Assembly (NCBI GenBank): GCA_024614665.1 | Contig: GCA_024614665.1_4861.1 | From: a phage | Length of the DNA: 64,000 bases | Reading direction: 5' to 3' (one strand) | Shown here: positions 1,847-62,861 of the stretch, in pieces | How positions within the stretch are numbered: the stretch's first letter is position 1 | Layout of the letters: the number at the start of each line of letters is the position of its first letter | The notes under the pieces: generated by a model | What the model was told of the DNA's origin: nothing | Seen by the model: only the letters and a program-made list of their open reading frames with translations | Database searches by the model: none | Made by a program: the position numbers and the translations under genes

Positions 1847-1872
1847 GGGGAGCCGAAGCTCCCTTTTCTTCA
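1847..1872. terminator. GC hairpin (GGGAGC-CGAA-GCTCCC) with flanking U/A tracts
   Basis: Downstream of gene 1895..2113; T-run on both sides. Confidence 0.5.
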
Positions 1873-1894
1873 CGACTTTATCCTCAATCGCCGA

Positions 1895-2113: not shown

Positions 2114-2148
2114 GGGATATTCCTTTTTTGTAGATTGTAGGTGAATTG

Positions 2149-2166
2149 GCGGGACTTTGCCCGCCG
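2149..2166. terminator. hairpin GGCGGG-ACTTTG-CCCGCC
   Basis: Between 1895..2113 and 2175..2621; U-tract weak. Confidence 0.3.
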
Positions 2167-2174
2167 GGTTATTA

Positions 2175-2621
2175 TTAGTGTACTTCTTTTTCTAAACGCA
2201 GGCGATGTGTTGCTAAGGCAACCGCACGGTTTTCGAATTCAAGACTGAATGGGCTGATTTGTGCCATGTATTTCTTTACGACATCGTCAGAGACAACTTG
2301 ACGACGATAATCACGAATCATTTCAGCAAAGCTGCTAGTAGGAAGTTCGTCGTATTCGATTTCCATACCACGTTTATTGATGTAGTACGAAGCAATCATG
2401 TCGTTAAACATTACATCGCCGGCTTCACCTAGAGGGAACTCGTCGCGAGTAGGTTCTGTGGTCTGGAACGTGGCTTCTTTGGCGTTGGCGATAATCTCTT
2501 CGAAGTCCTCAGTAGTGAATTCGCTAGGGTCTTGTTTGTTGGCCGCCATCACGATTAGGAAAGAAATCATAATCGGGTTTTTGCTAGCGTACTTAGTAAG
2601 TTCGTTATTCAGAATGTACAT
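2175..2621 (-). CDS. hypothetical acidic protein, 148 aa
   Basis: ORF immediately downstream of class-1 promoter motif and conserved leader with TTAAGGAG SD. Confidence 0.65.
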   Translation of the reverse strand: MYILNNELTKYASKNPIMISFLIVMAANKQDPSEFTTEDFEEIIANAKEATFQTTEPTRDEFPLGEAGDVMFNDMIASYYINKRGMEIEYDELPTSSFAEMIRDYRRQVVSDDVVKKYMAQISPFSLEFENRAVALATHRLRLEKEVH

Positions 2622-2672
2622 GTTAAAACTCCTTAAGATAATGGTCGATTAGATAAGAGTTAATGGTTAACT

Positions 2673-2698
2673 CTCACCTAAGTAATATATATCTGAAA
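2673..2698 (-). promoter_or_regulatory. class-1 promoter-like motif (mRNA sense TTTCAGATATATATTACTTAGGTGAG)
   Basis: One of at least 5 near-identical copies, each about 50-70 nt upstream of a gene start and followed by the conserved leader. Confidence 0.55.
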
Positions 2699-2733
2699 AT
2701 AATTGTAATCGGACTAGACAAAAAAAGAAGAAA

Positions 2734-2757
2734 CCCTACTCCCGAAGGAGTAGGGTG
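2734..2757 (-). terminator. UUCG-loop hairpin terminator
   Basis: CCCTACTCC-CGAA-GGAGTAGGG followed on the minus strand by a U-run; downstream of 2797..3237. Confidence 0.6.
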
Positions 2758-2796
2758 CTGCTTTATTGACCGCTTTTGGGATAAGTGCCTCTCAAG

Positions 2797-3237
2797 TCAA
2801 TCGGCCACGTAATCGCGTAAGAGTTTCCGGGCTGCTACTGTAGCAGAAACTTGCTCTTTATTAGCGTTAATACCGATGCCATTAAAACGTTTTAGTTTGT
2901 CTAAGAAAACGCTAATGTTTTCTTTCGGCATAGGGCGTGGGAACTTACGCAGAAAATAAAGTTGTTCGCGGCCAGGCACCCAACTGAGTACCCAGCACGC
3001 TTTCAGTGTACGGAAGATATCACGGTAGGGTTTCTTCTCTTGAAAGAAGTCCCCTTTTAACTGACAACGGTCTTCAACCATTGCCTGGAGTTGGGTGGCT
3101 ACGTTGGCCATTGCCGACCAGCTGATAAGACGACTACGGTGTTTACCCACGTAGAGACGTCCACCTGTAACACGACGGGACTCCGGATGTACTATTTTGA
3201 CAAACTGTAATCTTTTCTGTTTGCGTGGCTTTAACAT
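2797..3237 (-). CDS. hypothetical basic protein, 146 aa
   Basis: ORF with CTTAAGGAG SD before ATG at 3237; Lys/Arg-rich. Confidence 0.5.
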   Translation of the reverse strand: MLKPRKQKRLQFVKIVHPESRRVTGGRLYVGKHRSRLISWSAMANVATQLQAMVEDRCQLKGDFFQEKKPYRDIFRTLKACWVLSWVPGREQLYFLRKFPRPMPKENISVFLDKLKRFNGIGINANKEQVSATVAARKLLRDYVAD

Positions 3238-3264
3238 TTAAATACTCCTTAAGGGGCTATGACA

Positions 3265-3597
3265 CTACGGCCGTACAGTTAACATTTCTCTCAGATCGGT
3301 CACATCGAGCTTAGCAATCATGGGTGACGTCGTGATGTGTGCGCAACGAGGCTGTACTCGGTACGCCTCAAGTGGAAAAGGTTTGTTAAATGCTTTTATC
3401 TGGTCGCGGCGGAGCTTCTCCATCGCACGTTTGGCTAATGTCCTTTTTAAAGGTGACCACTTCGCTGCTAAACCGAGAATGATAACATCGACGATTAGCT
3501 GGTTCTCTTGATACTCGAATGTACCAATGAGTTTCTTACCTTTATAGAGTCGCGCACGTCCCTGCTGGAACACGACTGACGTTCGTTTCGTTTTCAT
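3265..3597 (-). CDS. hypothetical basic protein, 110 aa
   Basis: ORF track; same strand and spacing as neighbours. Confidence 0.5.
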   Translation of the reverse strand: MKTKRTSVVFQQGRARLYKGKKLIGTFEYQENQLIVDVIILGLAAKWSPLKRTLAKRAMEKLRRDQIKAFNKPFPLEAYRVQPRCAHITTSPMIAKLDVTDLREMLTVRP

Positions 3598-3640
3598 TGC
3601 TTGTGGTTTCCATGGTTAAAGGGAAAACAAACTGTTATTT

Positions 3641-4042
3641 TTACTCATCTTTTACCTCGAAACCGTGACTACGAAAATACTCGATGGCCGCAGAACGTTT
3701 ACCTACGCAGGAGAGTTTTTCATAGAGTAACTCAAGGAGTGTCTTTGGTTCCCAACGCTGCTCTATGAAATAGATTAGGGCACCCAGGTTCCATCCCAAC
3801 ATCTTATCACGCAGATCCGCATCTCGTCGGGCATCTCGTAGCTCGTCTTCGAGTTTCCGGTTCTTAGACTGTTCCTCAGAAAGTAATCGTGTAAGCTTAC
3901 GGCGTTCTTCGAAAGATTCATCGAGATTTCTCTTCCACGCTTCTTTCGAAATTTCCAACTCAGTCTTTGAGAGGCTGAGTTCCAATTCCAGTATTTCTAA
4001 TTGGCGGCGCAACTGTTTTTTCTCCTGAAACAGGCCGAACAT
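3641..4042 (-). CDS. hypothetical coiled-coil protein, about 133 aa
   Basis: ORF; preferred start ATG at 4040-4042 with AAGGAG 6 nt upstream; charged heptad-like sequence. Confidence 0.55.
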   Translation of the reverse strand: MFGLFQEKKQLRRQLEILELELSLSKTELEISKEAWKRNLDESFEERRKLTRLLSEEQSKNRKLEDELRDARRDADLRDKMLGWNLGALIYFIEQRWEPKTLLELLYEKLSCVGKRSAAIEYFRSHGFEVKDE

Positions 4043-4107
4043 GTTTTCTCCTTGCAATAGCTCTATCGATTCTGTTACGAACTTCTGCTAACGATAATGG
4101 TTCCCAC

Positions 4108-4428
4108 TTAAAATCCATTGCGACCTCCCTGTGCGATGTATAACGCACATTTCGCATTGAGTGCTTCGATATTAGCGATAAGTATCATCACCCCGCCGAG
4201 TGTGCGCGGTACGCGAACTGCTTCGTATTCACGCCCTTGCGTCCGGACACAATATTCATCGCCCAGGAACGCGATTTCGTAATACTCAGCACGTAACGGT
4301 ACAAATGACTGTAGCAACATATCTGCGGTTTGATAGTCGTCAGTCAGTTTCCCGCCCTCGAGTAAATATTTCTGAATCTCGTGAATAGTCAGTCCCCGTA
4401 ATGAAATAGACACCGGCTTCTCCTTCAT
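4108..4428 (-). CDS. hypothetical protein, about 100-106 aa
   Basis: ORF; conserved leader element AATCGACCAT and AAGGAG lie at the start region (ATG 4428 or in-frame GTG 4410), inside the 3' end of the upstream gene. Confidence 0.5.
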   Translation of the reverse strand: MKEKPVSISLRGLTIHEIQKYLLEGGKLTDDYQTADMLLQSFVPLRAEYYEIAFLGDEYCVRTQGREYEAVRVPRTLGGVMILIANIEALNAKCALYIAQGGRNGF

Positions 4429-4765
4429 GGTCGATTAATAACAGTTCAGGTGGTACGTCGTAGTCGATGGGTGCGGACTCCTCCATCGCGCCATACAATC
4501 GCTGATAGAACTCTCTGGAAGTTTCCAGGTGCCCTCTTGACACATGTTCGACATGCGGTACATTAGGATGATAAAACTCGCCATAAGTTATCGCTAACTC
4601 AACAAACCATAGACATAGTTCTCTTGGCCCGTATCGGTTATAAAACTTTATCACCCCAACATCAAACATCTTGTTGTAATGCGGTAAATCACGATAACGA
4701 AGTTTTAGTGTACTTACACCGATGCGTTGAAGCTCGATAGAGATAGCTACGTCTATGGTTACCAT
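4340..4765 (-). CDS. hypothetical protein, 141 aa
   Basis: ORF track; 3' end overlaps start of 4108..4428 in another frame. Confidence 0.55.
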   Translation of the reverse strand: MVTIDVAISIELQRIGVSTLKLRYRDLPHYNKMFDVGVIKFYNRYGPRELCLWFVELAITYGEFYHPNVPHVEHVSRGHLETSREFYQRLYGAMEESAPIDYDVPPELLLIDHEGEAGVYFITGTDYSRDSEIFTRGRETD

Positions 4766-4788
4766 TCACAATCACCCTTATCCGCCGA

Positions 4789-5172
4789 TCAGTTAAATCC
4801 GCTGTATTCGTCAATGGTGCCGTCTTTGATGTACACGCCCGGCGTCAGTGCGACTTTACGCGGATCTTTATCAGCACGCTCGCCGTTACACTGGACATTC
4901 CATTCGTTGGTTAAACGTTCCATTTCACGACTTGCATACAGCCGTACATTCGTAACTAACTCGCTGGCTTCGCCCAGGTGCGACGCATGGAGCACGCTGT
5001 TTTCCAGCCCGTAAAGTTTAGCGAGTAGAATCTTGTTAAGTTCTAACGCTGCTTTTGCAACGAGCGCATACCCTTGACGTTGCCCTTCTGTGCTTGCATT
5101 CAGTAACGTCAGCTGATGGTTTTTCATGTGTTCGATTGCCAGTGCTAAGTCGGTGTTCGTTGGCATTTCCAT
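4789..5172 (-). CDS. hypothetical protein, 127 aa
   Basis: ORF track; tightly packed with neighbours. Confidence 0.55.
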   Translation of the reverse strand: MEMPTNTDLALAIEHMKNHQLTLLNASTEGQRQGYALVAKAALELNKILLAKLYGLENSVLHASHLGEASELVTNVRLYASREMERLTNEWNVQCNGERADKDPRKVALTPGVYIKDGTIDEYSGFN

Positions 5173-5492
5173 TAGTATTTATCCTCACGTTTGCTAAACT
5201 CTTCTAACATCTCGTCGTACACATTCCTGGTATCTTTCAATCCCTGGACGGCCGCGTCATAGACGCGACGCGCAGGAGACGTAAGATGGTAGTGTCCAAT
5301 ACGTTCGATGATATCGTGGCACCGGCTAATGTGCGTACAAAGCCTACTCGCGTTAACACCCAGTTTCGCGAGGTCGTGTCTTAACTGCAAGTTATCGGCC
5401 TGTACACGACGGATAGCGGCAGCTAATTCTCGGTTTTCTTCGTACAGTTGTTTTTGTCGCTTGTTAATCAGCGCAAGTAACCAGTTCAACAT
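5172..5492 (-). CDS. hypothetical protein, 106 aa
   Basis: ORF track; start overlaps stop of upstream gene. Confidence 0.55.
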   Translation of the reverse strand: MLNWLLALINKRQKQLYEENRELAAAIRRVQADNLQLRHDLAKLGVNASRLCTHISRCHDIIERIGHYHLTSPARRVYDAAVQGLKDTRNVYDEMLEEFSKREDKY

Positions 5493-5502
5493 CCTGTCCC
5501 CC

Positions 5503-6021
5503 TTAACGCTTCAGATAGATAACGTTATGGTTTTCGTATTTCGCATCTACCCAGGAAAATTCCCAGTAGTGGCGAGGCCGATCAGCAATTTTCATGTCCA
5601 GTTCCAGGATACCATCTAAAGGTACCTGTCTGAGCACTTCTACGATGCTTTGCAGCTCGTTACGAGGACGGTCGTGGATTAACCCCAGATAACGCTCCAA
5701 ACGCTCAGGCGTCGCTACAGTGCGAATATGAGTACGTTTATCGTCATCGTGTAAGTAGAGGAAGTTCGGGGTGCGAGGGACGTACCAGTGCCAGGTACCG
5801 ATGTACGGGCCAGGCTGATAATCAGACAGTTGTTTGATTGCATTCAATACCGACGAACAACGGAAATACCAGATGTCCCATTCATCACGAGGGAACAGTT
5901 CCGCGACTTTCACTTTCAGTGGGTCGATACTAATATCCCCCGCAGCCAATACTTCTGGGGCAACGCCAGATTCTAAAACGTTACGTTCCCGTTTGGTGTA
6001 CAGGTTCATGGTAATATTCAC
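5503..6021 (-). CDS. hypothetical protein, 172 aa
   Basis: ORF; GTG start at 6019-6021 with TAAGGAG 8 nt upstream (alternative ATG at 6009). Confidence 0.55.
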   Translation of the reverse strand: MNITMNLYTKRERNVLESGVAPEVLAAGDISIDPLKVKVAELFPRDEWDIWYFRCSSVLNAIKQLSDYQPGPYIGTWHWYVPRTPNFLYLHDDDKRTHIRTVATPERLERYLGLIHDRPRNELQSIVEVLRQVPLDGILELDMKIADRPRHYWEFSWVDAKYENHNVIYLKR

Positions 6022-6048
6022 TTAATGCTCCTTAGGATTTAAAATAGC

Positions 6049-6333
6049 TTATTGTTTAGCCCAGTATTCGGCCAACGTTTGGTCACCTTTACCGATGCGA
6101 GCGTGAATGCCCATTTTACGCAGGCGGTACAGCTCATGGGACATGGTGTTTAGTTTGATAAGATTTACGTCCGTTGGGCTCTTAAGGCAATCGTCTAATA
6201 CATTAACGAATTTATCCAGCGCCTCTTGCGGAACTTTGCCTTCTGGGTAGTCGTACAGTGTTATCACTTTAAAGGTGTAACCGTCGATATTCGACAACAG
6301 TTTTACAGCTTCACTGATATCGCGATTTATCAT
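6049..6333 (-). CDS. hypothetical protein, about 94-117 aa (start uncertain)
   Basis: ORF track 6049..6402; ATG at 6333 has AGGA upstream and avoids overlap with the upstream gene. Confidence 0.45.
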   Translation of the reverse strand: MINRDISEAVKLLSNIDGYTFKVITLYDYPEGKVPQEALDKFVNVLDDCLKSPTDVNLIKLNTMSHELYRLRKMGIHARIGKGDQTLAEYWAKQ

Positions 6334-6376
6334 CGGCGTCCTATTGAGACGCATTGGTCTGGCAACACGGATTACT

Positions 6377-6709
6377 CTACCCATTAACCACCCCCAAACC
6401 ATTTACAATGGATGTTGCGGGGGCATCCAGGTTATTCATCCATAACGACAGTTTGTTCATCTTCGTCGCGGTTTCAGGACTAGGGTTATTGCGCAAGTCA
6501 CTTAAAGCCATCGCAAACTGGGTTGCCAGGATTTGACTGCCGTAGAAAGCGTTACGGCTTACAGGCAGCGCCTCGAAGCGTGCATCGAAATTGTTTGCTT
6601 GGTTAAGTTCTTTAACGGTGCTCAGAATGGCTTCCTGCATTCGAAGTTCGCCGTCGCCTTCAAGGTCAGTTGCCTGACGCAATACCGCAATGTGATAGAC
6701 TTTGGACAT
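6377..6709 (-). CDS. hypothetical protein, 110 aa
   Basis: ORF downstream of class-2 promoter-like motif; TTAAGGAG SD. Confidence 0.6.
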   Translation of the reverse strand: MSKVYHIAVLRQATDLEGDGELRMQEAILSTVKELNQANNFDARFEALPVSRNAFYGSQILATQFAMALSDLRNNPSPETATKMNKLSLWMNNLDAPATSIVNGLGVVNG

Positions 6710-6782
6710 TTTAATTGCTCCTTAATACATGACATAAGCTCTGATTGAAACGTAAATTTCAGAGGTTCACTGAGATAACATC

Positions 6783-6800
6783 TATCTGAAATAAAATAAA
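6783..6800 (-). promoter_or_regulatory. class-2 promoter-like motif (mRNA sense TTTCAGATAGATGTTATC)
   Basis: Related to class 1 (AGATA.AT.TTA.C) but without the conserved leader; upstream of 6377..6709. Confidence 0.45.
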
Positions 6801-6814
6801 GCGTACCAGCCACC

Positions 6815-15136: not shown

Positions 15137-15163
15137 CCCTACCTAACCGAAGTTAGGTAGGGG
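15137..15163 (-). terminator. UUCG-loop hairpin terminator
   Basis: CCCTACCTAAC-CGAA-GTTAGGTAGGG then U-rich tract; downstream of 15169..15474. Confidence 0.65.
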
Positions 15164-20230: not shown

Positions 20231-20292
20231 TGTAATGCCCTCAAAAGGTATTGCTGTCACAACATGAGGATAATGCGTAAAAAGACAAAAAA

Positions 20293-20316
20293 TTAAGGGG
20301 TCCGAAGACCCCTTAA
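20293..20316 (-). terminator. UUCG-loop hairpin terminator
   Basis: TTAAGGGGTC-CGAA-GACCCCTTAA immediately after the stop at 20320. Confidence 0.55.
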
Positions 20317-20319
20317 TGA

Positions 20320-21814: not shown

Positions 21815-21840
21815 CTCACTAAGGTAATATATATCTGAAA
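21815..21840 (-). promoter_or_regulatory. class-1 promoter-like motif
   Basis: Plus-strand CTCACTAAGGTAATATATATCTGAAA; upstream of HTH gene. Confidence 0.55.
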
Positions 21841-21896: not shown

Positions 21897-21922
21897 ACCC
21901 TCTTACCCGAAGGTAAGAGGGG
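21897..21922 (-). terminator. UUCG-loop hairpin terminator (identical copy at 49098..49123)
   Basis: CCCTCTTACC-CGAA-GGTAAGAGGG downstream of tmk. Confidence 0.6.
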
Positions 21923-23309: not shown

Positions 23310-23336
23310 CTCACTAAAGTAATATATATCTGAAAA
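23310..23336 (-). promoter_or_regulatory. class-1 promoter-like motif
   Basis: Plus-strand TCTCACTAAAGTAATATATATCTGAAA; directly after a terminator hairpin. Confidence 0.55.
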
Positions 23337-23348
23337 ATAATAGAGTCG

Positions 23349-23370
23349 ACCCACTCCCGAAGGAGTGGGT
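23349..23370 (-). terminator. UUCG-loop hairpin terminator
   Basis: ACCCACTCC-CGAA-GGAGTGGGT followed directly by a class-1 promoter. Confidence 0.6.
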
Positions 23371-28120: not shown

Positions 28121-28181
28121 GCCTCGCTCCTGGTATTTGATTAAGGGGGGTCATAATACTTCACAGGAAAATAATAAACAG

Positions 28182-28203
28182 TATAGGGGCCGAAGCCCCT
28201 ATA
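28182..28203 (-). terminator. UUCG-loop hairpin terminator
   Basis: TATAGGGGC-CGAA-GCCCCTATA downstream of the secreted protein gene. Confidence 0.55.
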
Positions 28204-28211
28204 CGCTGTGT

Positions 28212-30282: not shown

Positions 30283-30310
30283 GCCTCTTCTCCCAAAGGA
30301 GAAGAGGGCT
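30283..30310 (-). terminator. hairpin terminator
   Basis: GCCTCTTCTCC-CAAA-GGAGAAGAGGGC with U-run; downstream of 30314..30886. Confidence 0.6.
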
Positions 30311-37917: not shown

Positions 37918-37956
37918 TACCTCTCCCTTCGGGGAGAGGTACCTTTTCTTTTTTTA
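37918..37956. terminator. bidirectional UUCG hairpin terminator with U-tracts on both strands
   Basis: ACCTCTCCC-TTCG-GGGAGAGGT then TTTTCTTTTTTT on plus; A-run before it serves the convergent minus gene. Confidence 0.65.
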
Positions 37957-44006: not shown

Positions 44007-44030
44007 AAAGCTTACTCCCCGAAGGGAGTA
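44007..44030 (-). terminator. UUCG-loop hairpin terminator
   Basis: GCTTACTCCC-CGAA-GGGAGTAAGC with U-run; downstream of the 766-aa gene. Confidence 0.65.
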
Positions 44031-44064
44031 AGCTAATCTTAGGCAACGTAATCCTTACGGATTA

Positions 44065-49097: not shown

Positions 49098-49123
49098 TAA
49101 AACCCTCTTACCCGAAGGTAAGA
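49098..49123 (-). terminator. UUCG-loop hairpin terminator (identical to 21897..21922)
   Basis: CCCTCTTACC-CGAA-GGTAAGAGGG with U-run on the minus strand; downstream of 49133..49993. Confidence 0.6.
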
Positions 49124-49132
49124 GGGATACTA

Positions 49133-51034: not shown

Positions 51035-51060
51035 ATCACCTAGGTAATATATATCTGAAA
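51035..51060 (-). promoter_or_regulatory. class-1 promoter-like motif
   Basis: Plus-strand ATCACCTAGGTAATATATATCTGAAA; upstream of small membrane gene. Confidence 0.55.
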
Positions 51061-53381: not shown

Positions 53382-53920
53382 TAGCGACCTCCTCGGGCTC
53401 TATAAGCGTACTCAATACGTTTCATAATCGTATCATTAAAACGGTGGAGTTTAGACTCCAGGCGGACCTGCCCAAATAACGACTGAACACAGTCCGCCAT
53501 CGTTGCCGTGGGTTTCTTGAAATACCCGTAGCGGTTAGCCACAGGAAACAGTTTCGAAGCCAGCACATTGAACTGACGCAACCCTTCGATAGGGACTTCC
53601 CGGTAAATCAGCGTCGGGTTCTCCAGATAGTTCAGCCAGTCCGCAAGGTGTTCCATAATCCACCCGTACACTTTAATCCCGTCATGCGGGTCGTGTACAT
53701 CTAACGCACCACCGGTCGCTAAATACTCAGCAGCTTCTGAGGGGTGCAGATAGATAGGCTTCATGTTCAGTAACAACGCTTGTCGTTTCTTCGGGTCTTC
53801 TGGCAAGAACAATCCGTGTTCCTGACTGGCGTAGGTTGTGATGGTTGCGTATTCCGGTACCCGGAAGAACACCCACGCTTTAAACAGCATAAATGCTGCA
53901 CTGCGCTTCTTCTCCGACAT
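53381..53920 (-). CDS. hypothetical protein, 179 aa
   Basis: ORF track; overlapping start/stop with neighbours. Confidence 0.55.
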   Translation of the reverse strand: MSEKKRSAAFMLFKAWVFFRVPEYATITTYASQEHGLFLPEDPKKRQALLLNMKPIYLHPSEAAEYLATGGALDVHDPHDGIKVYGWIMEHLADWLNYLENPTLIYREVPIEGLRQFNVLASKLFPVANRYGYFKKPTATMADCVQSLFGQVRLESKLHRFNDTIMKRIEYAYRARGGR

Positions 53921-53922
53921 TA

Positions 53923-55278
53923 CTACCTCGCGTATTTCAAAATCACGTAGACCATCGGGACGTAATAGAACTGACTGTCCTTCGGTAAAGCCAGCACCAA
54001 TTCTGCTAAACGCGCAGCCACTTCACTAGGTACCGGTTGTTTGTTCAGATACAGGTACAAACAATGCTCCAGAACCGAGCTGTACGAGCCGCTATAGAAC
54101 GTTTCGCTTAACAGGTAGGGTTTATACGTCAACGGCAGAAAAGCCACCATATCCTCGCCTGCGTTGCCCTGATACTCAGGGAACATAACCGGTTCAAATG
54201 CTTCGAACTCTGGCCATTCCCCATCGTACGTTGCCAACTGACGAATCTGTGATGTAAAGAAGCGCGTTGAACTGAACTGTGACCACGCGATGGTGTTGCG
54301 GGTCTGCATCGTTCTGAAAGTGCGCGGGTTAACTGCGCTGCATTCTTTCTCGACGTACGGTAGTAGTCCTGGCTGTTGATTTAACAACACCGTGAACAGC
54401 GTTTCGATATCTTGCACAGGTTTCGGCGGGTGTGGGTAAATACGGATATCTTTACCAACGGTTCGAAGGCCGATAGCCTTCACAAACATCGCCAAGAAGA
54501 CGTCGTAGTAGCCGCCTGCCTTTAACCCGTCGAGTTTCCAGTCGTGTGGATAAGCAAGAGTTTCTAAACTGGTATCGTAGAAGCGACGGACAAACGTCGT
54601 CTCAATGTCCTTAATGCGGTCTCCCAGCTCCAGGAACGTACGATACTCGTTGGGGGTCAGTAAGGTATCACCACCGGTCCACGCACGCTCACGGACGTAA
54701 TGGAGCGTTCTGACGGTACACAGACGAATCGTCTCTGCAATCTGCGGTGTAATCTCGTACAACATCGTGTAACGTATCTGGTACGTTGCAATTTTGTTGT
54801 TCGACATTCGGGTAACGGCAGTGATGTTAAACAGTCCGTGTCGATGGTCGCCTATCGGCGCAACAAAGAAGTCACCCTCGTTCGGTGTAATCGATGCTAC
54901 CAGGGTCGACGTCCCGGTCAGTTCGAAAGTCTTACGTTGTTCGTCCTGCGTACGGTCGAGCGGTGCGTTAACACGTAATGACAGATTAACAATCTTAAGC
55001 AGCTGTTGCGTAGGGCTGTCATTCTGAGTATCGAACATCGTCTTCGGATCGTTGCGACCCGACAACGCGTGATAAAAATCAACCGGCCATTCAGAACCTT
55101 CGTTGTATTGCAGGAGATACTGTTTCGGAATCCTGTCGAAGTCCGTTACCGTGGTGCGGGTTGGAATCGTTACCAAGTTGCTGGCTTCTTTTACCCCGTC
55201 CTGCGGTTTATTGATAATCGGAATCTCAGGTTCAACAGGAACGAATTTAGTATCACCCCTCTTGTTCGCCTTGAGCAT
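53923..55278 (-). CDS. hypothetical protein, 451 aa
   Basis: ORF track. Confidence 0.55.
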   Translation of the reverse strand: MLKANKRGDTKFVPVEPEIPIINKPQDGVKEASNLVTIPTRTTVTDFDRIPKQYLLQYNEGSEWPVDFYHALSGRNDPKTMFDTQNDSPTQQLLKIVNLSLRVNAPLDRTQDEQRKTFELTGTSTLVASITPNEGDFFVAPIGDHRHGLFNITAVTRMSNNKIATYQIRYTMLYEITPQIAETIRLCTVRTLHYVRERAWTGGDTLLTPNEYRTFLELGDRIKDIETTFVRRFYDTSLETLAYPHDWKLDGLKAGGYYDVFLAMFVKAIGLRTVGKDIRIYPHPPKPVQDIETLFTVLLNQQPGLLPYVEKECSAVNPRTFRTMQTRNTIAWSQFSSTRFFTSQIRQLATYDGEWPEFEAFEPVMFPEYQGNAGEDMVAFLPLTYKPYLLSETFYSGSYSSVLEHCLYLYLNKQPVPSEVAARLAELVLALPKDSQFYYVPMVYVILKYAR

Positions 55279-56755
55279 TATCGGCTCCTCTGATGGCTAT
55301 AATCGTGGTATTAAATTGCGTCAACAGGACACGGCGATAGAACTTCGTGATTTCATCAATCACACTTGGTGGTAACACAGGTTTATCCCACCACCAATCC
55401 GGGCAATCCCAATCTGGGAATAACCACTCAATAAGCACTTTTGCCGCTTTTGGATAAAGATGCAGTGGCCATAAGTCCAGATTACGCCAGTCGTGTATTG
55501 CCGACTCTGTTAAGTAGTACGCTTTCTCGACATGAACTTCACGGTTACGTAGCGAGAAAACACCGTTCTCCCAATGATAGAAACGCGGTTCAATAATTTG
55601 ACCGTTCTCGAACAATTCCATACGGATAATGCCCGTCTGACCTGTCGGGTCTATCGTGCGACAGTGCTCGATATAAGGAACCACGTCGGCATTCCAGACA
55701 TACGGTAAATCATCGATACTACAAACCTCAGGGTCGATCATGTTTTCTTCACCGAAGGCTACATCGGTGCCGAACACATGCAGAAGCTTTGCTTTTAGCG
55801 GCGAGTGTGTACGTTCGAACTGTTCTGTCGGTGACAGCAGATACGGTAGGCGTAAGAACTGGCGAGATTCATTAATCCACCAAGTGCCGTCGAGGTTCTT
55901 TTGCTGTTGGTGACGTTGCACACCCTCTTCATTACTCACAAACGGTGGGTCTATCTCAGGCCACCATTCATCAGGCAACGGTGTTTGGTTGATGATGTAC
56001 GGGTAGGTAATCACCACCTCTTCGGGTCGCTGATACGAGAAGCGTATAACGAAGCTGGTCTCGTAATGGTTTTCGTCGTTATCCCAGGTAGGAGAGATAA
56101 CATCGTAAACCGTCTCGATACGGGTTGGTGCATAACGCACCGCTAAGACATTCTGGCCACCGGCGACATTGCCTGTGGTGAAAACGTCGGGTGTGAAATG
56201 TGCCTTTAGATAGGCTTTAAAGTCATCGTATTTCGGCACACGGGTCCCTGCGGCAATATAGCATTCGTTCAATAGCTTAAGCGCAGGTTTTGGAATCAAG
56301 TAATACGCTTCGGATTCCGTCATGGTCGAATAGCGACCCATGTCGATAAGTGAATCCAGGCGGTTCGCCCAACGTAACAATTCGTCGCGTGATGGGCCGA
56401 CACGCCGGAGCGTGATGGTCACGTTATACATTACGCGGACAGGAGCAGCGCGTACTTGGTCTTCGGGGTTATGGAAGAATGGAATCTCTGCCGCTAACCC
56501 AACTTGACGGTTAATGCGTGCACGTTCATCACGTTCTTCTTCCACTTCGACGTAGACACGGTTCGGTGCTGAATAGTCCACCGGTGTCTCATCGCCGAGC
56601 GTAGAGCCTGGCTGATGGGCGGTGTTGAAGCTATCCGTGAAAACAACACTGGCACGTTCAATACCAGATTCGTTTAGCACACGTTCTACGACGCCGTCGA
56701 CCACAGCTTTGCGCATGGTCTTGTCCAACGATGGAATTTCAAAATACTGTTGCAT
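55253..56755 (-). CDS. hypothetical Trp-rich protein, 500 aa
   Basis: ORF track. Confidence 0.55.
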   Translation of the reverse strand: MQQYFEIPSLDKTMRKAVVDGVVERVLNESGIERASVVFTDSFNTAHQPGSTLGDETPVDYSAPNRVYVEVEEERDERARINRQVGLAAEIPFFHNPEDQVRAAPVRVMYNVTITLRRVGPSRDELLRWANRLDSLIDMGRYSTMTESEAYYLIPKPALKLLNECYIAAGTRVPKYDDFKAYLKAHFTPDVFTTGNVAGGQNVLAVRYAPTRIETVYDVISPTWDNDENHYETSFVIRFSYQRPEEVVITYPYIINQTPLPDEWWPEIDPPFVSNEEGVQRHQQQKNLDGTWWINESRQFLRLPYLLSPTEQFERTHSPLKAKLLHVFGTDVAFGEENMIDPEVCSIDDLPYVWNADVVPYIEHCRTIDPTGQTGIIRMELFENGQIIEPRFYHWENGVFSLRNREVHVEKAYYLTESAIHDWRNLDLWPLHLYPKAAKVLIEWLFPDWDCPDWWWDKPVLPPSVIDEITKFYRRVLLTQFNTTIIAIRGADNAQGEQEG

Positions 56756-58739: not shown

Positions 58740-59496
58740 CTGCTGGTTCTTCAGCGGTTTTCACTTCAACTGGTTTCATCAGCGAGTTCGCACAGTCGAA
58801 GATAGCATCCAGGAAACCACGGAACGGCTTCATGGCTTCACGCTGGGCGTTCTGACGTTCTTCTTCAATTGCTTCTTCTTGCGCCTGAATTTCTTCAGCA
58901 GTCAGCTCCGGGTGTTCCGTCATGCTTTCTGCCAGGGTCATCACTTTCGGCTGCGCATTCCGAATCGGAATACGGCGGATGACCTTGGTGATATTCCCGA
59001 GCTTCATGCCACCCAGCGCGGTTTCGAACAGCGTACCGAAATCTTGCAGTGGGTCTTCGCTGATTTCCAGTACCGCCGGAGTCGCAACCAGACCAAAGGC
59101 AATGACCAATTCAACAGCAGTGTCAGTGACGTGCACAGCGAACGGGGTGTCTTCCATCTGCAGGTAATTGTTACCATTATAGGTCACCGGAATGAATTTG
59201 ATTTCTTCCCCTTTCTTCAGGCGCAGTGTGTCGACTGCGGCTTTGTACTGAACTTCGTACAGTTCCGGTTTAACACCGTCAACGTTATCCAGTGTAAAGA
59301 GCAGGTCGCCAACCGCCATACGGCGCGGCAGTTTGCGTTTGTTGATTTCGCGCAGCCAGACTTGTAAGCCGGTGAATTGAATTGGGGACAGTATAATTTT
59401 AAAGCCGTTGGTTGCTTGCAGGATAGCACCGTCGTCTTCGCTACGTTCGATAGAGCCATTAGCCAGAGTAAGCAGATTGATAGTTTTCATTTTCAT
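58735..59496 (-). CDS. hypothetical protein, 253 aa
   Basis: Downstream of class-1 promoter motif and leader. Confidence 0.6.
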   Translation of the reverse strand: MKMKTINLLTLANGSIERSEDDGAILQATNGFKIILSPIQFTGLQVWLREINKRKLPRRMAVGDLLFTLDNVDGVKPELYEVQYKAAVDTLRLKKGEEIKFIPVTYNGNNYLQMEDTPFAVHVTDTAVELVIAFGLVATPAVLEISEDPLQDFGTLFETALGGMKLGNITKVIRRIPIRNAQPKVMTLAESMTEHPELTAEEIQAQEEAIEEERQNAQREAMKPFRGFLDAIFDCANSLMKPVEVKTAEEPAA

Positions 59497-59537
59497 ATTC
59501 CTTAAGTGATAGTCGGTTAAAAGATTACCAATGCAAT

Positions 59538-59563
59538 CTCACCTAGGTAATATATATCTGAAA
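59538..59563 (-). promoter_or_regulatory. class-1 promoter-like motif
   Basis: Plus-strand CTCACCTAGGTAATATATATCTGAAA; upstream of 58735..59496. Confidence 0.55.
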
Positions 59564-59598
59564 TCTTTTCTAATCTGAGACAAAAAAAGAAAGGGTAA

Positions 59599-59620
59599 AT
59601 CCCCCACCGAAGTGGGGGAT
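59599..59620 (-). terminator. UUCG-loop hairpin terminator
   Basis: ATCCCCCAC-CGAA-GTGGGGGAT then U-rich tract; downstream of paralog B, followed by class-1 promoter. Confidence 0.6.
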
Positions 59621-59632
59621 TCGCCAGTCTAA

Positions 59633-60892
59633 TTACTTAGACTTTTCGTACGCACCGATACCGGCGCTGATGTAGCCGTTAACGCCGGCGATCAGGTTTT
59701 TCTGGCCAGTTGCAACGCAACGTTCGGTCCAGGAGATGTACTGGTTCGCAACGGTGATTGCACGACGTGCAACACGGACGTTGGAAGTCAGTTCAGCGTT
59801 GTCGTCGATCTTCACGCCGTCGATACGTTTCAGCAGCGCCTCAATAGCCCGCTCGTACGATTCTTGAGCCTGGTTATTTTTGTGGTACGCTTTCACGTTC
59901 TCTTCGACTGCTTTACCCAGCTGGTTGAAGAACGCAACCAGAGAAGACAGCGTCTGAGCAGACGGAGTAGAAACAGATTTTTCTACGCTGCCTTCAGCAT
60001 CGATAACGGTGAAGGAAGCTTCCAGGTCATCCCCGTTCACTTTCACGTCAGCTTTACCGATCTGGTTACCCAGCAGTTGAACTTCGCCCGCTTTGCCTGC
60101 AGTGGCTTTGTTAACCGCTGCTGCGAAGCCGCTGTTCAGTTTCCCGCCTTCAACTGCGCTGACCATGCTGGTTGCAGCTTTGACCACTGCATCCTGCTCG
60201 CCGTAGATGCTGCCGATAGTAGACAGAACACCTTTCAGGACGTTGATGTCGTTACCGACGAACTTACCACCGGTGGTCAGGTTCTTAATGAACCCACCGC
60301 TAACGGTGTCTTTCTTCTGCTTGCCCAGGCCACGCAGAGCCGCGTCATATTTCTTAGCGCGCGCCTGAATGGATTTACCCTGGTTGCTGAACTTGAGCCA
60401 GCGATCTTTGATTTTACGGCCTTGTTCTTTCAGCCAGTCGAAGATACGCTGCAGGAACGCTTTGATGTCGTCCCACAGTGATTCACGAGCAACCTGACGG
60501 CGTTTACGTGCGCCGTAAGATTCCTGCGCAACGCTTACGCGGTGATCGAATGCCCAACGTTTACGGATAGATTCCTGCGCAACGTCCAGCTGCTCAGCAG
60601 CTTCGTCAGGCATATCTTCTTCCACTTCCATTGGCTCTTCGCCATCTTCGCCTTCGCCGTCAGCAGCGGCTTCAGCAGCATCAACTGCATCCAGCTGTGC
60701 ATCAGTTTCGTCACCGTCTTCTGCCAGCACGTCTGCTTCTGCGTCCAGCTGGTCGATCGGTTTGGTGTCATGCTCGATGTCGGCCAGGGTACCTTCCACG
60801 GACTCAGCCGGCAGCTCGATGCCATCTGGAACGACAGTGCCTGCGCCTTCGACAGATTCACGAGCGAGTTTACTTTTTACAAAGTTAGCCAT
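59633..60892 (-). CDS. paralog B of tandem pair, 419 aa; acidic N-terminal third, Lys-rich middle; putative abundant virion or scaffold-like protein
   Basis: First 15 residues (MANFVKSKLARESVE) and C-terminal GIGAYEKSK identical to 60970..62247; strong codon bias. Confidence 0.6.
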   Translation of the reverse strand: MANFVKSKLARESVEGAGTVVPDGIELPAESVEGTLADIEHDTKPIDQLDAEADVLAEDGDETDAQLDAVDAAEAAADGEGEDGEEPMEVEEDMPDEAAEQLDVAQESIRKRWAFDHRVSVAQESYGARKRRQVARESLWDDIKAFLQRIFDWLKEQGRKIKDRWLKFSNQGKSIQARAKKYDAALRGLGKQKKDTVSGGFIKNLTTGGKFVGNDINVLKGVLSTIGSIYGEQDAVVKAATSMVSAVEGGKLNSGFAAAVNKATAGKAGEVQLLGNQIGKADVKVNGDDLEASFTVIDAEGSVEKSVSTPSAQTLSSLVAFFNQLGKAVEENVKAYHKNNQAQESYERAIEALLKRIDGVKIDDNAELTSNVRVARRAITVANQYISWTERCVATGQKNLIAGVNGYISAGIGAYEKSK

Positions 60893-60908
60893 CTTTTTCT
60901 ATCCTCTA

Positions 60909-60929
60909 GGCGGTACGCCGTGTACCGCC
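60909..60929 (-). terminator. hairpin between the tandem paralogs
   Basis: GGCGGTAC-GCCGT-GTACCGCC immediately upstream of the SD of 59633..60892; may attenuate or structure the inter-paralog region. Confidence 0.4.
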
Positions 60930-60969
60930 ATTAATGATTTGTCAACTGACGTTCAGTACGTAAAGCGGA

Positions 60970-62247
60970 TTAAGCTTTAGACTTTTCGTACGCGCCAATA
61001 CCAGCGCCGATGTAGCCGTTCAGGCCGCTGATAACAGTGTTACCAACGTGAGCCACAGCACGGTTCAGAGTCTGGTAGTTACGCACAGCCTGGTCAGCTG
61101 CAGTGCGTGCATTACGCAGCGCTTCCCACTCGCCTTCGTCGTTGGATTTTTTCAGAGCGGCAGCAGCTTTGGCAGCAGCCTCTTCCAGTTTCTCAACGTC
61201 AGCATCGTAGCTGCGGAAGTCTTGCAGGACTTTCTCGAAGCCTTTACCGATAACGTCCAGGGCAGACGCAGCAGATGCCAGTGCAGAAATAGCCGGAGTA
61301 GCGATTTCTTTCGTTTCAGAAACGTCACCCGTCGACAGGAAGGCCACTGCGGTGAATTCCTGACCGCCTGCCAGAGTTTTGGTGCCGGTCTGTACATAGG
61401 CGTTGCCTGGCAGTGCCAGAACTTTCTGACCGCCTTCGCCGTCTTCGAATTGCGGCAGTGCGCGCAGTTTCTTCGCAGCGGTACCAAACAGGGCAACGTC
61501 AACAGCGCCTTTAGCAGCGGTTGCGGTACCGTCTGAAGTTTTGGTGATCGCTACAGCAGAGTCAGCCGCCTGAGAGGACAGCTTGTTGATAGCATCTTTC
61601 GCTTTACCGCCGGTCAGCTCTTTCGCGATAGCGATAGAGTTGGCCACATCGAATTCACCTTCGATAGACAGTTTGCTAATAAAGCCACCAGAAATGTTTT
61701 CTTTCTTCTGTTTGCCGAGCTTACGCAGCATCTCCTGGTAAGCTTTCGCACGTTTCTGCGCGGACTTACCAACGTTGATGTACTTCAGTTTCAGCTCTTT
61801 CGCTTTCGCGATAACTGCTTTACACAGTTCAACGAAGCGTTCGAACAGATCTTTCAGGGTTTCTTTCCAGCCTTCCTGAGCTGCTTTGGTCATGCCACGG
61901 CCACGGCGATAAGATTCGCGTGCCAGTTTGGTACGATCGATAGCCCAACGTTTACGGATAGATTCCTGCGCCACTTCGGTGTGAGCGATGGCTTCTTCAG
62001 GCATCTCTTCACCGTTTTCGATTTTTTCGTCAGCAGCGTCGATAGCAGCTTCGGTACGCTCGGTATCAGCAGCCAGAGTTTCCTGGTCACCATCGAGCTG
62101 TTCCAGCTGACCGTCGATAGACGCAACTTCTGCCAGCTGAACGTCGATGTTCTCTTCTGCCGGTTCAACGTTGCTCAGACCGTCGATTACGTCGCCGGTA
62201 GCTTCAACGGACTCGCGGGCGAGTTTACTTTTTACAAAGTTTGCCAT
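60970..62247 (-). CDS. paralog A of tandem pair, 425 aa
   Basis: Tandem duplicate of 59633..60892 with conserved termini and diverged middle. Confidence 0.6.
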   Translation of the reverse strand: MANFVKSKLARESVEATGDVIDGLSNVEPAEENIDVQLAEVASIDGQLEQLDGDQETLAADTERTEAAIDAADEKIENGEEMPEEAIAHTEVAQESIRKRWAIDRTKLARESYRRGRGMTKAAQEGWKETLKDLFERFVELCKAVIAKAKELKLKYINVGKSAQKRAKAYQEMLRKLGKQKKENISGGFISKLSIEGEFDVANSIAIAKELTGGKAKDAINKLSSQAADSAVAITKTSDGTATAAKGAVDVALFGTAAKKLRALPQFEDGEGGQKVLALPGNAYVQTGTKTLAGGQEFTAVAFLSTGDVSETKEIATPAISALASAASALDVIGKGFEKVLQDFRSYDADVEKLEEAAAKAAAALKKSNDEGEWEALRNARTAADQAVRNYQTLNRAVAHVGNTVISGLNGYIGAGIGAYEKSKA

Positions 62248-62303
62248 TTGTTTCGGTTCCTTTGGTTATAACCCAATTACACGCCCCTAGATAAGGGGCC
62301 CCC

Positions 62304-62861
62304 TTAGGGACGTGCGATTTTTAAAAACACTGCTAACGACGAGATCATATCGGATAACCCGTTCGGACGTGTCAACCAACGTGCCAGCAGTTCGTGGTCT
62401 GCATAAGATAATAGACGCCGGTCAGGCGTGTACGTCTGATGCGCAGTTCCCATTTGGCGAACTTGCCCACTACGGCCGTAAGCCGCAGCAAGAAGTCGTG
62501 AGCCCAGGGAACCGGTTCGCTCTACTTGCTTGGTAGAGTGGATATCGTTCATGTACGATACCAGAAGAACGGACCACTGTCCTGTTGACACTGTACGGCG
62601 TTTACCGTCAAGTATGAACGATGCAGTTTCGTTATAGAACGTATTAAACGTAAAACCGACCTGCGGATATTCGTCATATAATACTTGTTGGACAGAGTCA
62701 GCGCCCATCATGCGGAAATACGGCAGCACGACGGCTGCAGCTTCCAGGGTTTCATGTATCAGTTCGTCGTCATGAACCAGCACGGGGTTTTGGGTCAGTT
62801 TCGCCATGTAGTTTTTAATCAACTTCTCGGCGAGGTTAAAATTCTGGTCATTGTCAAACAT
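62304..62861 (-). CDS. hypothetical protein, 185 aa
   Basis: ORF track. Confidence 0.55.
   Translation of the reverse strand: MFDNDQNFNLAEKLIKNYMAKLTQNPVLVHDDELIHETLEAAAVVLPYFRMMGADSVQQVLYDEYPQVGFTFNTFYNETASFILDGKRRTVSTGQWSVLLVSYMNDIHSTKQVERTGSLGSRLLAAAYGRSGQVRQMGTAHQTYTPDRRLLSYADHELLARWLTRPNGLSDMISSLAVFLKIARP

Follow-up and report, generated by a model that had tools for sequence, protein, structure and literature searches.

Two adjacent genes in a 64,000 nt stretch of phage DNA (the window) encode proteins that have diverged through their middle parts and still carry the same ends, and the question raised by this locus is what keeps those ends alike. An ORF search recovered both genes on the minus strand, at 60970..62247 (425 aa) and 59633..60892 (419 aa), and BLASTP aligned their products at 34% identity (152/443, E 2e-54), upholding the coordinates, lengths and paralogy proposed in an earlier sequence-only reading. 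Over 2.8 kb the locus shares 99.5% nucleotide identity with SPN3US, the two proteins are 99.8–100% identical in amino acids to those of SPN3US and SEGD1, and the gp54 counterpart in NC_027402 is annotated as an internal head protein. The source of the window is evidently an SPN3US-type (Seoulvirus) jumbo phage.

60970..62247, minus strand: gp53 gene, 425 aa precursor, 'paralog A' (ORF, PF12699, PHROG 2497)
59633..60892, minus strand: gp54 gene, 419 aa precursor, 'paralog B' (ORF, PF12699, PHROG 2497)

Locus identity and precursor architecture

Both products match Pfam PF12699, the phiKZ-type internal head proteins, over profile positions 2–387 of 387 (gp53 E 4.5e-75, 253.7 bits; gp54 E 1.1e-56, 193.2 bits; gathering cut-off 27 bits), and PHROG 2497 'internal head protein' (E 5.9e-150 and 4.8e-140), which bears out the suggestion that they are capsid-internal. 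The upstream neighbour of gp53, an ORF at 62304..62861, is a PF25618 PhiKZ_gp91 vertex-binding homolog; the gene order beside this gp91-type gene is kept in 13 related phages and eight metagenomic contigs, and the synteny of phiKZ gp91–gp95 is that of the window locus. We are highly confident that the window genes are SPN3US-type gp53 and gp54, processed tandem paralogs of the PF12699 family, with the readings of tips and hairpin given below included, and that the duplication behind them is ancient. The genes, their shared N-terminus, the protease site and the targeting idea were already published for SPN3US between 2017 and 2023; the 15-residue identity, the 34% overall identity, the AXE-12 motif and the analogy with the T4 capsid-targeting sequence (CTS) were described together (PMC5694885).

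Each precursor consists of three parts: a 12-residue N-peptide of the form x-N-F, five variable and mostly basic or polar residues, and A-R-E, the end of which is a prohead-protease site; an acidic propeptide of ~110–125 residues with further A-x-E sites; and a basic, mostly helical domain of ~30 kDa.

62212..62247, minus strand: gp53 codons 1–12, dodecapeptide MANFVKSKLARE, ending at ARE-12 (sequence; mass spectrometry in SPN3US, PMC10052503)
60857..60892, minus strand: gp54 codons 1–12, same dodecapeptide MANFVKSKLARE (sequence)
61873..62211, minus strand: gp53 acidic propeptide, residues 13–125 (composition and motif scan)
60482..60856, minus strand: gp54 acidic propeptide, residues 13–137 (composition and motif scan)
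60973..61872, minus strand: gp53 mature basic domain, residues 126–425 (sequence and AlphaFold2)
59636..60481, minus strand: gp54 mature basic domain, residues 138–419 (sequence; published maturation site)

The proposed contrast between an acidic N-terminal part and a basic, Lys-rich remainder was confirmed. The propeptides have pI 4.4 (gp53, residues 1–125) and 4.1 (gp54, residues 1–137), and the mature parts pI 9.2 (gp53, 31.5 kDa, 34 Lys) and 9.5 (gp54, 30.3 kDa, 29 Lys). A scan for AXE-type motifs placed sites at residues 12, 95, 111 and 125 of gp53 and 12, 107, 124 and 137 of gp54, in line with the (S/A/G)-x-E form of propeptide cleavage sites in PF12699 proteins. The strong codon bias noticed earlier was likewise recovered, with Nc values of 34.4 (gp53) and 36.9 (gp54) ranking second and fourth among the 57 window ORFs of at least 150 aa; the stronger bias than that of gp53 occurs only in a 766-aa ORF, the putative major capsid gene. 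The AlphaFold2 model of gp53 (pLDDT 82.7, pTM 0.80) is built of six long helices plus a small beta region, an elongated, helix-rich fold such as characterizes PF12699, and residues 4–14 are predicted to be helical. A PDB sequence search returned no solved homolog, Foldseek returned nothing below E 0.1, and weak ClyA-type toxin look-alikes (TM <0.25) were not taken as evidence.

Published work on the near-identical SPN3US proteins shows the loading, cleavage and ejection steps experimentally (PMC5694885, PMC10052503, PMC7552025). By mass spectrometry, the prohead protease gp245 cuts after AXE motifs, with sites at ARE-12, AQE-95 and AQE-125 in gp53 and at AQE-124 and ARE-137 in gp54, and the gp54 maturation site (E)SLWDDIK is published (PMC10052503). 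The N-terminal processing site postulated from the sequence is therefore an established gp245 site in SPN3US gp53; cleavage of gp54 after residue 12, detected by mass spectrometry for gp53 alone (PMC10052503), would follow by identity with gp53. Each SPN3US head contains >600 copies of gp53 and >600 of gp54, in about equimolar amounts (virion SC/M, the spectral count per unit mass, 21.0 for gp53 and 20.2 for gp54), particles of a gp243 amber mutant lack both (PMC5694885), and in protease-deficient, mottled capsids the two proteins are the main constituents of an inner T=1 shell (PMC7552025). In SPN3US, hundreds of copies of both proteins thus enter the prohead and make up most of the inner shell, after which gp245 cleaves behind A-x-E and the basic domains remain with the DNA and are ejected into the host.

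Concerted termini and their possible causes

The two window proteins begin with the same 15 residues, MANFVKSKLARESVE. At the other end, the identical block reported as the last nine residues is in fact ten residues long and is followed in gp53 by an extra Ala.

60976..61005, minus strand: gp53 C-terminal AGIGAYEKSK, residues 415–424, then one extra Ala (sequence)
59636..59665, minus strand: gp54 C-terminal AGIGAYEKSK, residues 410–419, the protein end (sequence)

As had been observed, the 5' DNA is nearly identical as well (39/45 nt), and the differences are unevenly placed: codons 1–9 agree at 26 of 27 nt, one base differing, and codons 10–14 each show a synonymous difference. The suggestion of a C-terminal processing signal did not hold, since relatives have AYA, AYG, AYK or AHS where the shared block has AYE, and no C-terminal cleavage of gp53 or gp54 is listed in the SPN3US mass spectrometry (PMC10052503). 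Family-wide, the C-terminus follows G-Y-I-x-A-G-I-x-A-[YH], and the last two to five residues differ by lineage.

Comparison among relatives revealed that the tips of both copies change together from phage to phage, which appears to be a new detail. Across 18 lineages, identity over the variable N-tip averaged 0.75 within a genome vs 0.40 between genomes (permutation p ~5e-6), and in 14 of these lineages the best match to the N-tip of the A copy was the genome's own B copy. Among 11 cultured-phage genomes, identity within a genome vs across genomes was 0.85 vs 0.58 for the N-tip and 0.66 vs 0.35 for the C-tail; for the core it was 0.25 in both comparisons. Trees agree with these values, in that the core resolves into clean, separate A and B clades of mirrored topology, which appear ancient, whereas the tips group by genome. 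The tips are thus more alike within a genome and the rest of the gene follows orthology, the pattern expected of concerted evolution. For the C-tail, the 11 cultured-phage genomes show this concertedness clearly, and in six metagenomic lineages it is, by eye, weak. Additional paralogs in two metagenomic phages carry the same lineage-specific tip, and in Erskinevirus the tips of the two paralogs have drifted apart (3–5 of nine positions matching). Throughout 41 family members, N3, F4, A10, E12 and S13 are invariant. The identity of residues 10–15 may be ascribed to plain purifying selection on the protease site, and that of residues 2–9 and of the last C-terminal residues would represent concerted evolution of the paralogs.

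A further interpretation, with close to an even chance of being right, is that the cleaved dodecapeptide, and less so the last C-terminal residues, act as a lineage-specific address tag that all paralogs of one phage must share, that changes between lineages about as fast as the core, and is kept matched by selection together with micro conversion over tracts of at most ~25 nt. The most likely reason for the match would be that a common prohead partner needs the same N-terminal 'address' on both paralogs, new variants probably spreading from copy to copy by occasional very-short-tract gene conversion. Because synonymous sites are saturated at 34% amino acid identity, the contributions of selection and conversion were weighed by same-codon fractions and by ortholog and paralog comparisons rather than by dN/dS.

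Ongoing gene conversion, as the sequence-only reading had it, survives in part: the tips do evolve in concert, and a codon 12 split across genera and the diverged codons of L026 speak against conversion throughout. Recurrent short-tract conversion could be the main source of tip identity, with peptide sameness not itself required, a view that we consider quite possible, if rather doubtful. It draws on SPN3US and the lineages L025 and L028, in which the paralogs agree over the first 22–27 nt and synonymous differences set in directly afterwards; on the SPN3US clade, in which both copies went from AQRKI to VKSKL and gp53 also acquired a synonymous AAT to AAC change; and on codon 2, the presence or absence of which is always common to the paralogs of one genome. 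Residues that are identical also share their codon moderately more often in the N-tip than in the rest of the genes (0.73 vs 0.58, p 0.012, the lineages being non-independent). Each of the four amino acid changes in the SPN3US clade, however, has only one possible single-base route, so that identical DNA follows automatically from identical amino acid changes. The 5' UTRs and 3' flanks of gp53 and gp54 are unrelated, and a conversion tract, already limited to ~25 nt or less, would therefore be flanked by homologous sequence on just one side, its upstream side being the non-homologous 5' UTRs. At codon 12, nearly every gp53 ortholog uses GAG and nearly every gp54 ortholog GAA, and because this split persists across genera, conversion has not crossed the ARESVE site. 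On this evidence the ARES(V/I)E site appears to be kept by selection with paralog-specific codons, and any gene conversion appears limited to about codons 1–9. Finally, the 12-mer of L026 is identical in both paralogs although six of its first nine codons differ, which indicates selection on the peptide.

That same lineage lends weight to parallel selection, in which both copies would fit one evolving partner through a free N-terminal x-N-F and fix their changes independently, the candidate partners being a prohead core or scaffold protein, gp243 or the protease. Its peptides are identical from diverged codons; the five family-wide invariant positions fit such a contact; removal of Met, by the known specificity of MetAP, would leave one residue followed by N-F in all cases (ANF, SNF, PNF, GNF, MNF); and it is both proteins, not one, that are missing from the gp243 amber particles (PMC5694885). 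Against this, four identical replacements would be needed in both copies within the short divergence of SPN3US and STsAS, and Erskinevirus tolerates clearly unlike tips in its paralogs. We consider parallel selection a tenable explanation that falls somewhat short of probable.

It is very improbable that the shared 5' sequence reflects an mRNA constraint on translation initiation in two very highly expressed genes rather than the peptide: the 5' codons are A/T-rich, with TTT, GCA, CAA and AAA near-universal, and the codon bias of both genes ranks with the strongest in the window, but amino acids are conserved where codons differ (codons 10–14 of the window and L026, which largely refutes the idea), the invariant N-F and A-R/Q-E-S are protein-level motifs with ARE-12 a proven cleavage site (PMC10052503), and the two 5' UTRs are unrelated.

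The intercistronic hairpin and expression signals

The hairpin reported between them lies exactly at 60909..60929 and reads, on the mRNA strand (60929..60909), GGCGGUAC-ACGGC-GUACCGCC.

60909..60929, minus strand: intercistronic stem-loop, 8 bp stem, 5 nt loop, dG -13.9 kcal/mol (folding and alignment)
60902..60907, minus strand: gp54 Shine-Dalgarno AGAGGA, 9 nt before the ATG (read from sequence)
62257..62262, minus strand: gp53 Shine-Dalgarno-like AAGGAA, 9 nt before the ATG (read from sequence)
59597..59622, minus strand: intrinsic terminator after gp54, 11 bp stem, UUCG loop, T-rich tail (terminator scan)

Because the stem ends 1 nt upstream of the gp54 Shine-Dalgarno, which is invariant in a 13-sequence alignment, the hairpin adjoins the ribosome-binding site rather than sitting on top of it, as had been thought. 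Its structure is kept in 12 of 13 related phages with different stem sequences (the exception, Lh1B, is a low-quality sequence), its position is the same across relatives with at least seven different stem sequences, and alifold detected compensatory changes at four of the eight pairs. An Rfam search of 59400–62500 gave no match at E up to 1. The hairpin appears to be a conserved RNA element that most likely influences how the bicistronic late mRNA is processed, how stable it is or whether it is partially terminated, a function suggested by its position and conservation; it does not occlude the ribosome-binding site.

It is unlikely that the element determines the ratio of gp53 to gp54 as an intrinsic terminator or attenuator. 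It is an intergenic, GC-rich stem-loop, many other hairpins of the window are terminators, and a run of 4–6 T follows the equivalent hairpin in L027 and L029; against this, no T-run follows the stem in the window and the 12 hairpin-bearing relatives (13 examined), where the stem runs into (U)AGAGGA. A rho-independent terminator has a GC-rich stem and then a U-tract, and here UAGAGGAUAG comes after the stem. The hairpin was also not called by the terminator scan, its loop is not the UUCG tetraloop usual in the terminators of this phage, and the two proteins have near-equal SC/M values in virions (PMC5694885). The window hairpin is not a classical terminator. The structure after gp54, in contrast, was the top terminator-like match (fold z-score -4.4), is conserved in relatives, and is the end of the gp53–gp54 transcription unit. 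A sigma-70 promoter between the genes was rejected, promoter-like matches showing no enrichment (13 vs 14.5 expected) and the TTGACA of the spacer lacking a -10 partner; a conserved element upstream of gp53 does not repeat elsewhere in the genome.

Comparison with known systems and significance

The closest counterparts are SPN3US gp53 and gp54 ('paralog family A', high-abundance ejection proteins), which are essentially the same genes in the same order with the same flanks. The inner-body proteins gp93, gp94, gp95, gp162 and gp163 of phiKZ also belong to PF12699 and lie beside the gp91 vertex-binding gene. They likewise have a short N-peptide with an (S/A)xE site at 11–13, an acidic N-region and a helix-rich domain, and gp93 was modelled on the inner capsid surface from Ser14, just past its SLE-13 site (PMC11297242). 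Their N-termini (MSLLKMLDKLSLE, MNLNKLLDSLE and MTFKLNEYLDSLE) are, however, only loosely similar and not identical, and phiKZ has five to eight paralogs at ~100–200 copies each, whereas the SPN3US-type locus has two at >600 copies each; no phiKZ match was obtained by tblastn with gp53 at E 1e-5. In the E. coli chimallivirus Goslar, gp53–gp58 are tandem PF12699 proteins that number in the hundreds to thousands per virion and are injected into the host; there are six paralogs with gp58 dominant (~2150 copies), in contrast to the two roughly equimolar ones here (bioRxiv 10.64898/2026.04.21.720040).

A functional parallel lacking sequence homology is offered by the CTS of T4 IPI, IPII, IPIII and Alt. 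In both systems an N-terminal peptide of ~10–12 residues ends in a hydrophobic-A-x-E protease site, and in the T4-like course the prohead protease removes the peptide while the basic cargo stays with the DNA and is ejected (PMC7411985). A short cleaved N-peptide of this kind is found here, with the cut between MANFVKSKLARE and S, cleavage at ARE-12 having been seen by mass spectrometry for gp53 but not for gp54 (PMC10052503). Unlike the T4 CTS proteins, gp53 and gp54 carry a long acidic propeptide with several more cleavage sites after the peptide. In a scan of the whole SPN3US genome that covered the start of every ORF of 80 aa or longer, the peptide occurs in gp53 and gp54 only (next BLOSUM score 32 vs 70), and since no other ORF carries it, the 12-mer is not a general T4-like capsid-targeting tag for head proteins.

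In the SPN3US, phiKZ and Goslar literature examined, C-terminal identity, tip co-variation and the intercistronic hairpin are not discussed, and no SPN3US paper on gene conversion, concerted evolution or paralogs was among the matches listed by a full-text search. The additions to the published picture are the concerted tips, the limited conversion and the conserved hairpin.

Most of the cargo in jumbo-phage capsids consists of PF12699 proteins, the role of which has been called an unsolved mystery (bioRxiv 10.64898/2026.04.21.720040). The matching of N-tips within each genome suggests that the removed 12-mer has a real recognition function. If the address-tag interpretation is true, the peptide would be a true capsid-targeting signal, serving the cargo that chimallivirus-like jumbo phages package in the largest amounts, and would provide a handle to load foreign proteins into these capsids. 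Separately, the structurally conserved hairpin may be a point at which two of the three most abundant head proteins are controlled at the RNA level.

Identity of the locus and agreement with published work

Over 2.8 kb the region shares 99.5% identity with Salmonella phage SPN3US and ~99% with other Seoulvirus genomes, and its two open reading frames correspond to SPN3US 53606-54883 and 54961-56220, annotated as 'internal head proteins'. Each aligns over the full length of Pfam PF12699 (phiKZ_IP; E 4.5e-75 and 1.1e-56) and also hits PHROG 2497, and the published maturation peptides (E)GWKETLKDLFER and (E)SLWDDIK map to the 425-aa and 419-aa proteins, respectively (PMC10052503). The two ORFs are gp53 and gp54 of the SPN3US type, internal head proteins, and together with the neighbouring gp91 homolog they reproduce the gp91-gp95 arrangement of phiKZ.

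62304..62861: homolog of the vertex-binding PhiKZ_gp91, upstream neighbour of gp53
62247..60970, minus strand: gp53 ORF, 425 aa, adjacent to gp54
60892..59633, minus strand: gp54 ORF, 419 aa

ORF scanning and alignment agree with the sequence-only reading, which described paralogs of 419 and 425 aa sharing their first 15 residues (MANFVKSKLARESVE); over the full length identity is 34% (BLASTP, E 2e-54). The nine identical C-terminal residues it reported are a ten-residue block, AGIGAYEKSK, which ends gp54 but has one more Ala after it in gp53, so that the match holds only with a one-residue shift. The near-identity of the 5' DNA was confirmed (39 of the first 45 nt), with a single base difference in codons 1-9 and synonymous differences in all of codons 10-14. 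The described acidic N-terminal third and Lys-rich remainder were likewise recovered, with pI 4.4 for the first 125 residues of gp53 and 4.1 for the first 137 of gp54 vs 9.2 (34 Lys) and 9.5 (29 Lys) for the remainders, as was strong codon bias: Nc values of 34.4 (gp53) and 36.9 (gp54) rank 2 and 4 among the 57 ORFs that reach 150 aa, and the only ORF reported as more biased than this pair is a 766-aa one, the putative major capsid gene.

Much of this is established for SPN3US. Ali et al. 2017 reported the identical N-terminal 15 residues despite only 34% overall identity, located the protease motifs AXE-12 and SXE-15 within them, found the peptide reminiscent of T4 capsid-targeting sequences, estimated that each protein is present >600 times in a head, and found both proteins missing in a gp243 mutant (PMC5694885). 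Mass spectrometry in 2023 placed cleavages by the prohead protease gp245 at ARE-12, AQE-95 and AQE-125 in gp53 and at AQE-124 and ARE-137 in gp54 (PMC10052503), and protease-deficient capsids contain a T=1 inner shell of mostly uncleaved gp53 and gp54 (Heymann et al. 2020, PMC7552025). In the phiKZ capsid structure, the homolog gp93 begins at Ser14, directly after the SLE-13 site, and over residues 14-84 it is bound to the capsid's inner face (PMC11297242). A 2026 Goslar preprint speaks of an 'unsolved mystery' as to what PF12699 proteins do (bioRxiv 10.64898/2026.04.21.720040). The interpretation of the shared termini as a targeting or processing signal of capsid proteins was largely right and is already published for SPN3US, and the proposed virion mass spectrometry with N-terminal mapping and copy-number comparison in relatives have in essence already been carried out by others. 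What is new is modest: the concerted tips (the extreme terminal residues), the resulting limits on gene conversion, and a conserved intercistronic hairpin.

Both paralogs were compared across 13 related cultured phages (Seoulvirus, Erskinevirus, Machinavirus, Wellingtonvirus and Derbicusvirus) and eight metagenomic contigs; a Vibrio phage locus that has one family member only was retrieved as well.

The probable gp53-gp54 transcription unit

60929..60909, mRNA strand: intercistronic hairpin, 8-bp stem, 5-nt loop, dG -13.9 kcal/mol
60907..60902, minus strand: gp54 Shine-Dalgarno sequence, AGAGGA
59622..59597, minus strand: strong canonical terminator after gp54

The hairpin lies exactly where it had been placed, but because it ends 1 nt upstream of AGAGGA it abuts the ribosome-binding site rather than covering it. 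A GC-rich stem-loop of 7-10 bp (dG -12.6 to -18.7 kcal/mol) is present in 12 of the 13 cultured relatives, the exception, Lh1B, being a low-quality sequence, and its 3' end falls 12-16 nt before the gp54-type ATG, directly against (U)AGAGGA. Among the related phages the stem has no fewer than seven different sequences, and RNAalifold, even with an alignment made without regard to structure, finds compensatory changes in four of eight pairs. All eight metagenomic lineages carry the hairpin, two with an added T-run and two with a spacing of about 30-50 nt to the start codon; it has no match in Rfam. In the window the hairpin has neither a U-tract nor the UUCG loop typical of this phage's terminators. 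Given this and the terminator behind gp54, the two genes look, from their sequence, as if transcribed late as one unit that contains a conserved RNA structure between the cistrons, for which processing or stability, partial termination and holding the Shine-Dalgarno sequence accessible are possible roles.

The intergenic terminators of the window are strikingly uniform, with 9-11 bp stems, a UUCG tetraloop (CGAA on the other strand) and a T-rich tail.

59622..59597, 49126..49103, 44034..44009, 37941..37918, 30307..30284, 28204..28181, minus strand: UUCG terminators, examples
23370..23349, 21921..21898, 20317..20292, 15162..15137, 2756..2733, minus strand: further examples
59547..59560, 51044..51057, 23319..23332, 21824..21837, 2682..2695, minus strand: copies of CAGATATATATTAC
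62280..62314, minus strand, extending to about 62265: CACGTCCCTAAGGGGGCCCCTTATCTAGGGGCGTG(TAATTGGGTTATAACC) element, ~35-45 nt

The five exact copies of CAGATATATATTAC compare with 0.35 expected, and three of them (59547, 23319 and 2682) have a UUCG-loop terminator no more than about 40 nt upstream. The repeat contains TATATTAC, a phiKZ early-promoter-like sequence, and it probably marks virion RNA polymerase promoters, one directly past the gp54 terminator. Upstream of gp53, the CACGTCCCTAAGGGGGCCCCTTATCTAGGGGCGTG(TAATTGGGTTATAACC) element overlaps the gp52 stop codon, folds as a hairpin and occurs once in the SPN3US genome; it is almost invariant in 13/13 related phages of five genera and far more conserved than the coding DNA flanking it. 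Its stems are invariant and show no covariation, which points to a site bound by a protein or polymerase, perhaps the gp53-gp54 unit's late promoter or regulator.

Lineage-specific tips on diverged cores

In a tree of the cores (the proteins without their tips), all gp53-type (A) sequences separate from all gp54-type (B) sequences with mirrored species topologies, indicating that the duplication predates these genera. Core A:B identity is 0.25 both within and across genomes, and core ortholog identity is 0.62 and 0.53. For residues 1-10, in contrast, A:B identity is 0.85 within genomes vs 0.58 across genomes and 0.58 between orthologs, and for the last five alignment columns 0.66 within vs 0.35 across (permutation p < 5e-5 for each). 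The tree of tips groups by genome. Examples of a tip carried by both copies are MANFVKSKL (SPN3US clade), MANFAQRKI (sister Seoulvirus clade), MNFIQ (Wellingtonvirus), MNFMQ (Derbicusvirus), and MNFAQRNL and MSNFWKQKV in the metagenomic lineages L025 and L028, respectively. Across 18 lineages, identity at nine variable N-tip positions is 0.75 within genomes vs 0.40 between (p about 5e-6), and the best match to the A copy is its own genome's B copy in 14. Third paralogs in L016, L017 and L028 also bear the local tip. Terminal identity thus persists in related genomes in lineage-specific form, which on this sequence evidence amounts to concerted evolution.

Copy number differs among lineages, as L017 (a Shewanella-associated 222-kb contig, 1471-5704) and L028 (2201-5663) have three tandem PF12699 paralogs, not two. 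In L016 (ENA contig k141_45740) a highly diverged third paralog (5581-6807; PF12699 E 3.5e-10) follows two others; its deposited call begins 111 nt too early, overlapping the upstream gene, and the true start is probably the ATG at 5692, giving MSNFWKLGIARESV, a lineage-specific tip that its neighbour has too. The deposited 'gp53' of Salmonella phages SPFM5/6/8/9/10/12/14/15/20 (P0052-P0058) is block-wise scrambled, C-terminal segments first and the N-terminal KSKLARESVEATGDV segment last, which confines its tblastn match to residues 121-176; an artefact of the assembly or of the record seems to be the explanation, not biology.

At the C-terminus, G-Y-I-x-A-G-I-x-A-[YH] is a family-wide motif, present even in the Vibrio phage homolog, at the end of the last predicted helix (residues 371-418). 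Lineage co-variation is limited to the last 2-5 residues (KSK(A), KG, KK, KA), and in the six added metagenomic lineages inspection by eye shows a weak match between the tails. A shared C-terminal processing signal, as had been proposed, is unlikely, since the AYE motif is not conserved in relatives.

Selection or conversion at the N-terminal tip

Ongoing gene conversion had been proposed for the termini, and the evidence divides along the peptide. The ARES(V/I)E segment has about 0.88 identity in every comparison, yet its same-codon fraction is only 0.38, and across genera nearly every A gene has GAG as codon 12 where nearly every B gene has GAA; with such paralog-specific codons, the segment is held by purifying selection for the protease site and not by conversion. 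For residues 1-10, homogenisation by very short-tract conversion would fit a same-codon fraction of 0.73, compared with 0.58 for the remainder of the two genes (p 0.012), and the 22-27 identical nt in SPN3US, L025 and L028 that give way at once to synonymous differences. However, the UTRs flanking the two genes are unrelated, only one single-base change leads to each of the four replacements in the SPN3US clade, the metagenomic lineage L026 has an identical 12-mer with six of its first nine codons different, and the tips of the two Erskinevirus paralogs have drifted apart.

Past the 15-mer, a paralog-specific segment is near-invariant among orthologs across genera: residues 16-37 in gp54-type proteins (G-T-G-T-V-V-P-D-G-L-E-L-P-A-E-S-V-E-G-I-L, window about 60782..60847) and 18-38 in gp53-type proteins (D-V-I-D-G-L-S-N-V-E-P-A-E-E-N-L-D-V-Q-L). 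Taken in isolation, it is disordered in the AlphaFold prediction (pLDDT <50); on the model of residues 14-84 of phiKZ gp93, it may be an arm binding the inner capsid surface.

From the tip comparisons we conclude that the tips appear to be kept matched by selection, with very short-tract conversion a likely but unproven vehicle. N3, F4, A10, E12 and S13 are invariant among 41 family members, and under the established specificity of MetAP every N-tip variant reduces to one residue plus N-F at the free N-terminus. The paralogs of phiKZ differ in having only a loose L-x-SLE pattern in common. The peptide is absent from every other SPN3US ORF, so the tag is family-specific rather than general, and the one residue plus N-F common to all variants suggests that the very N-terminus is recognised.
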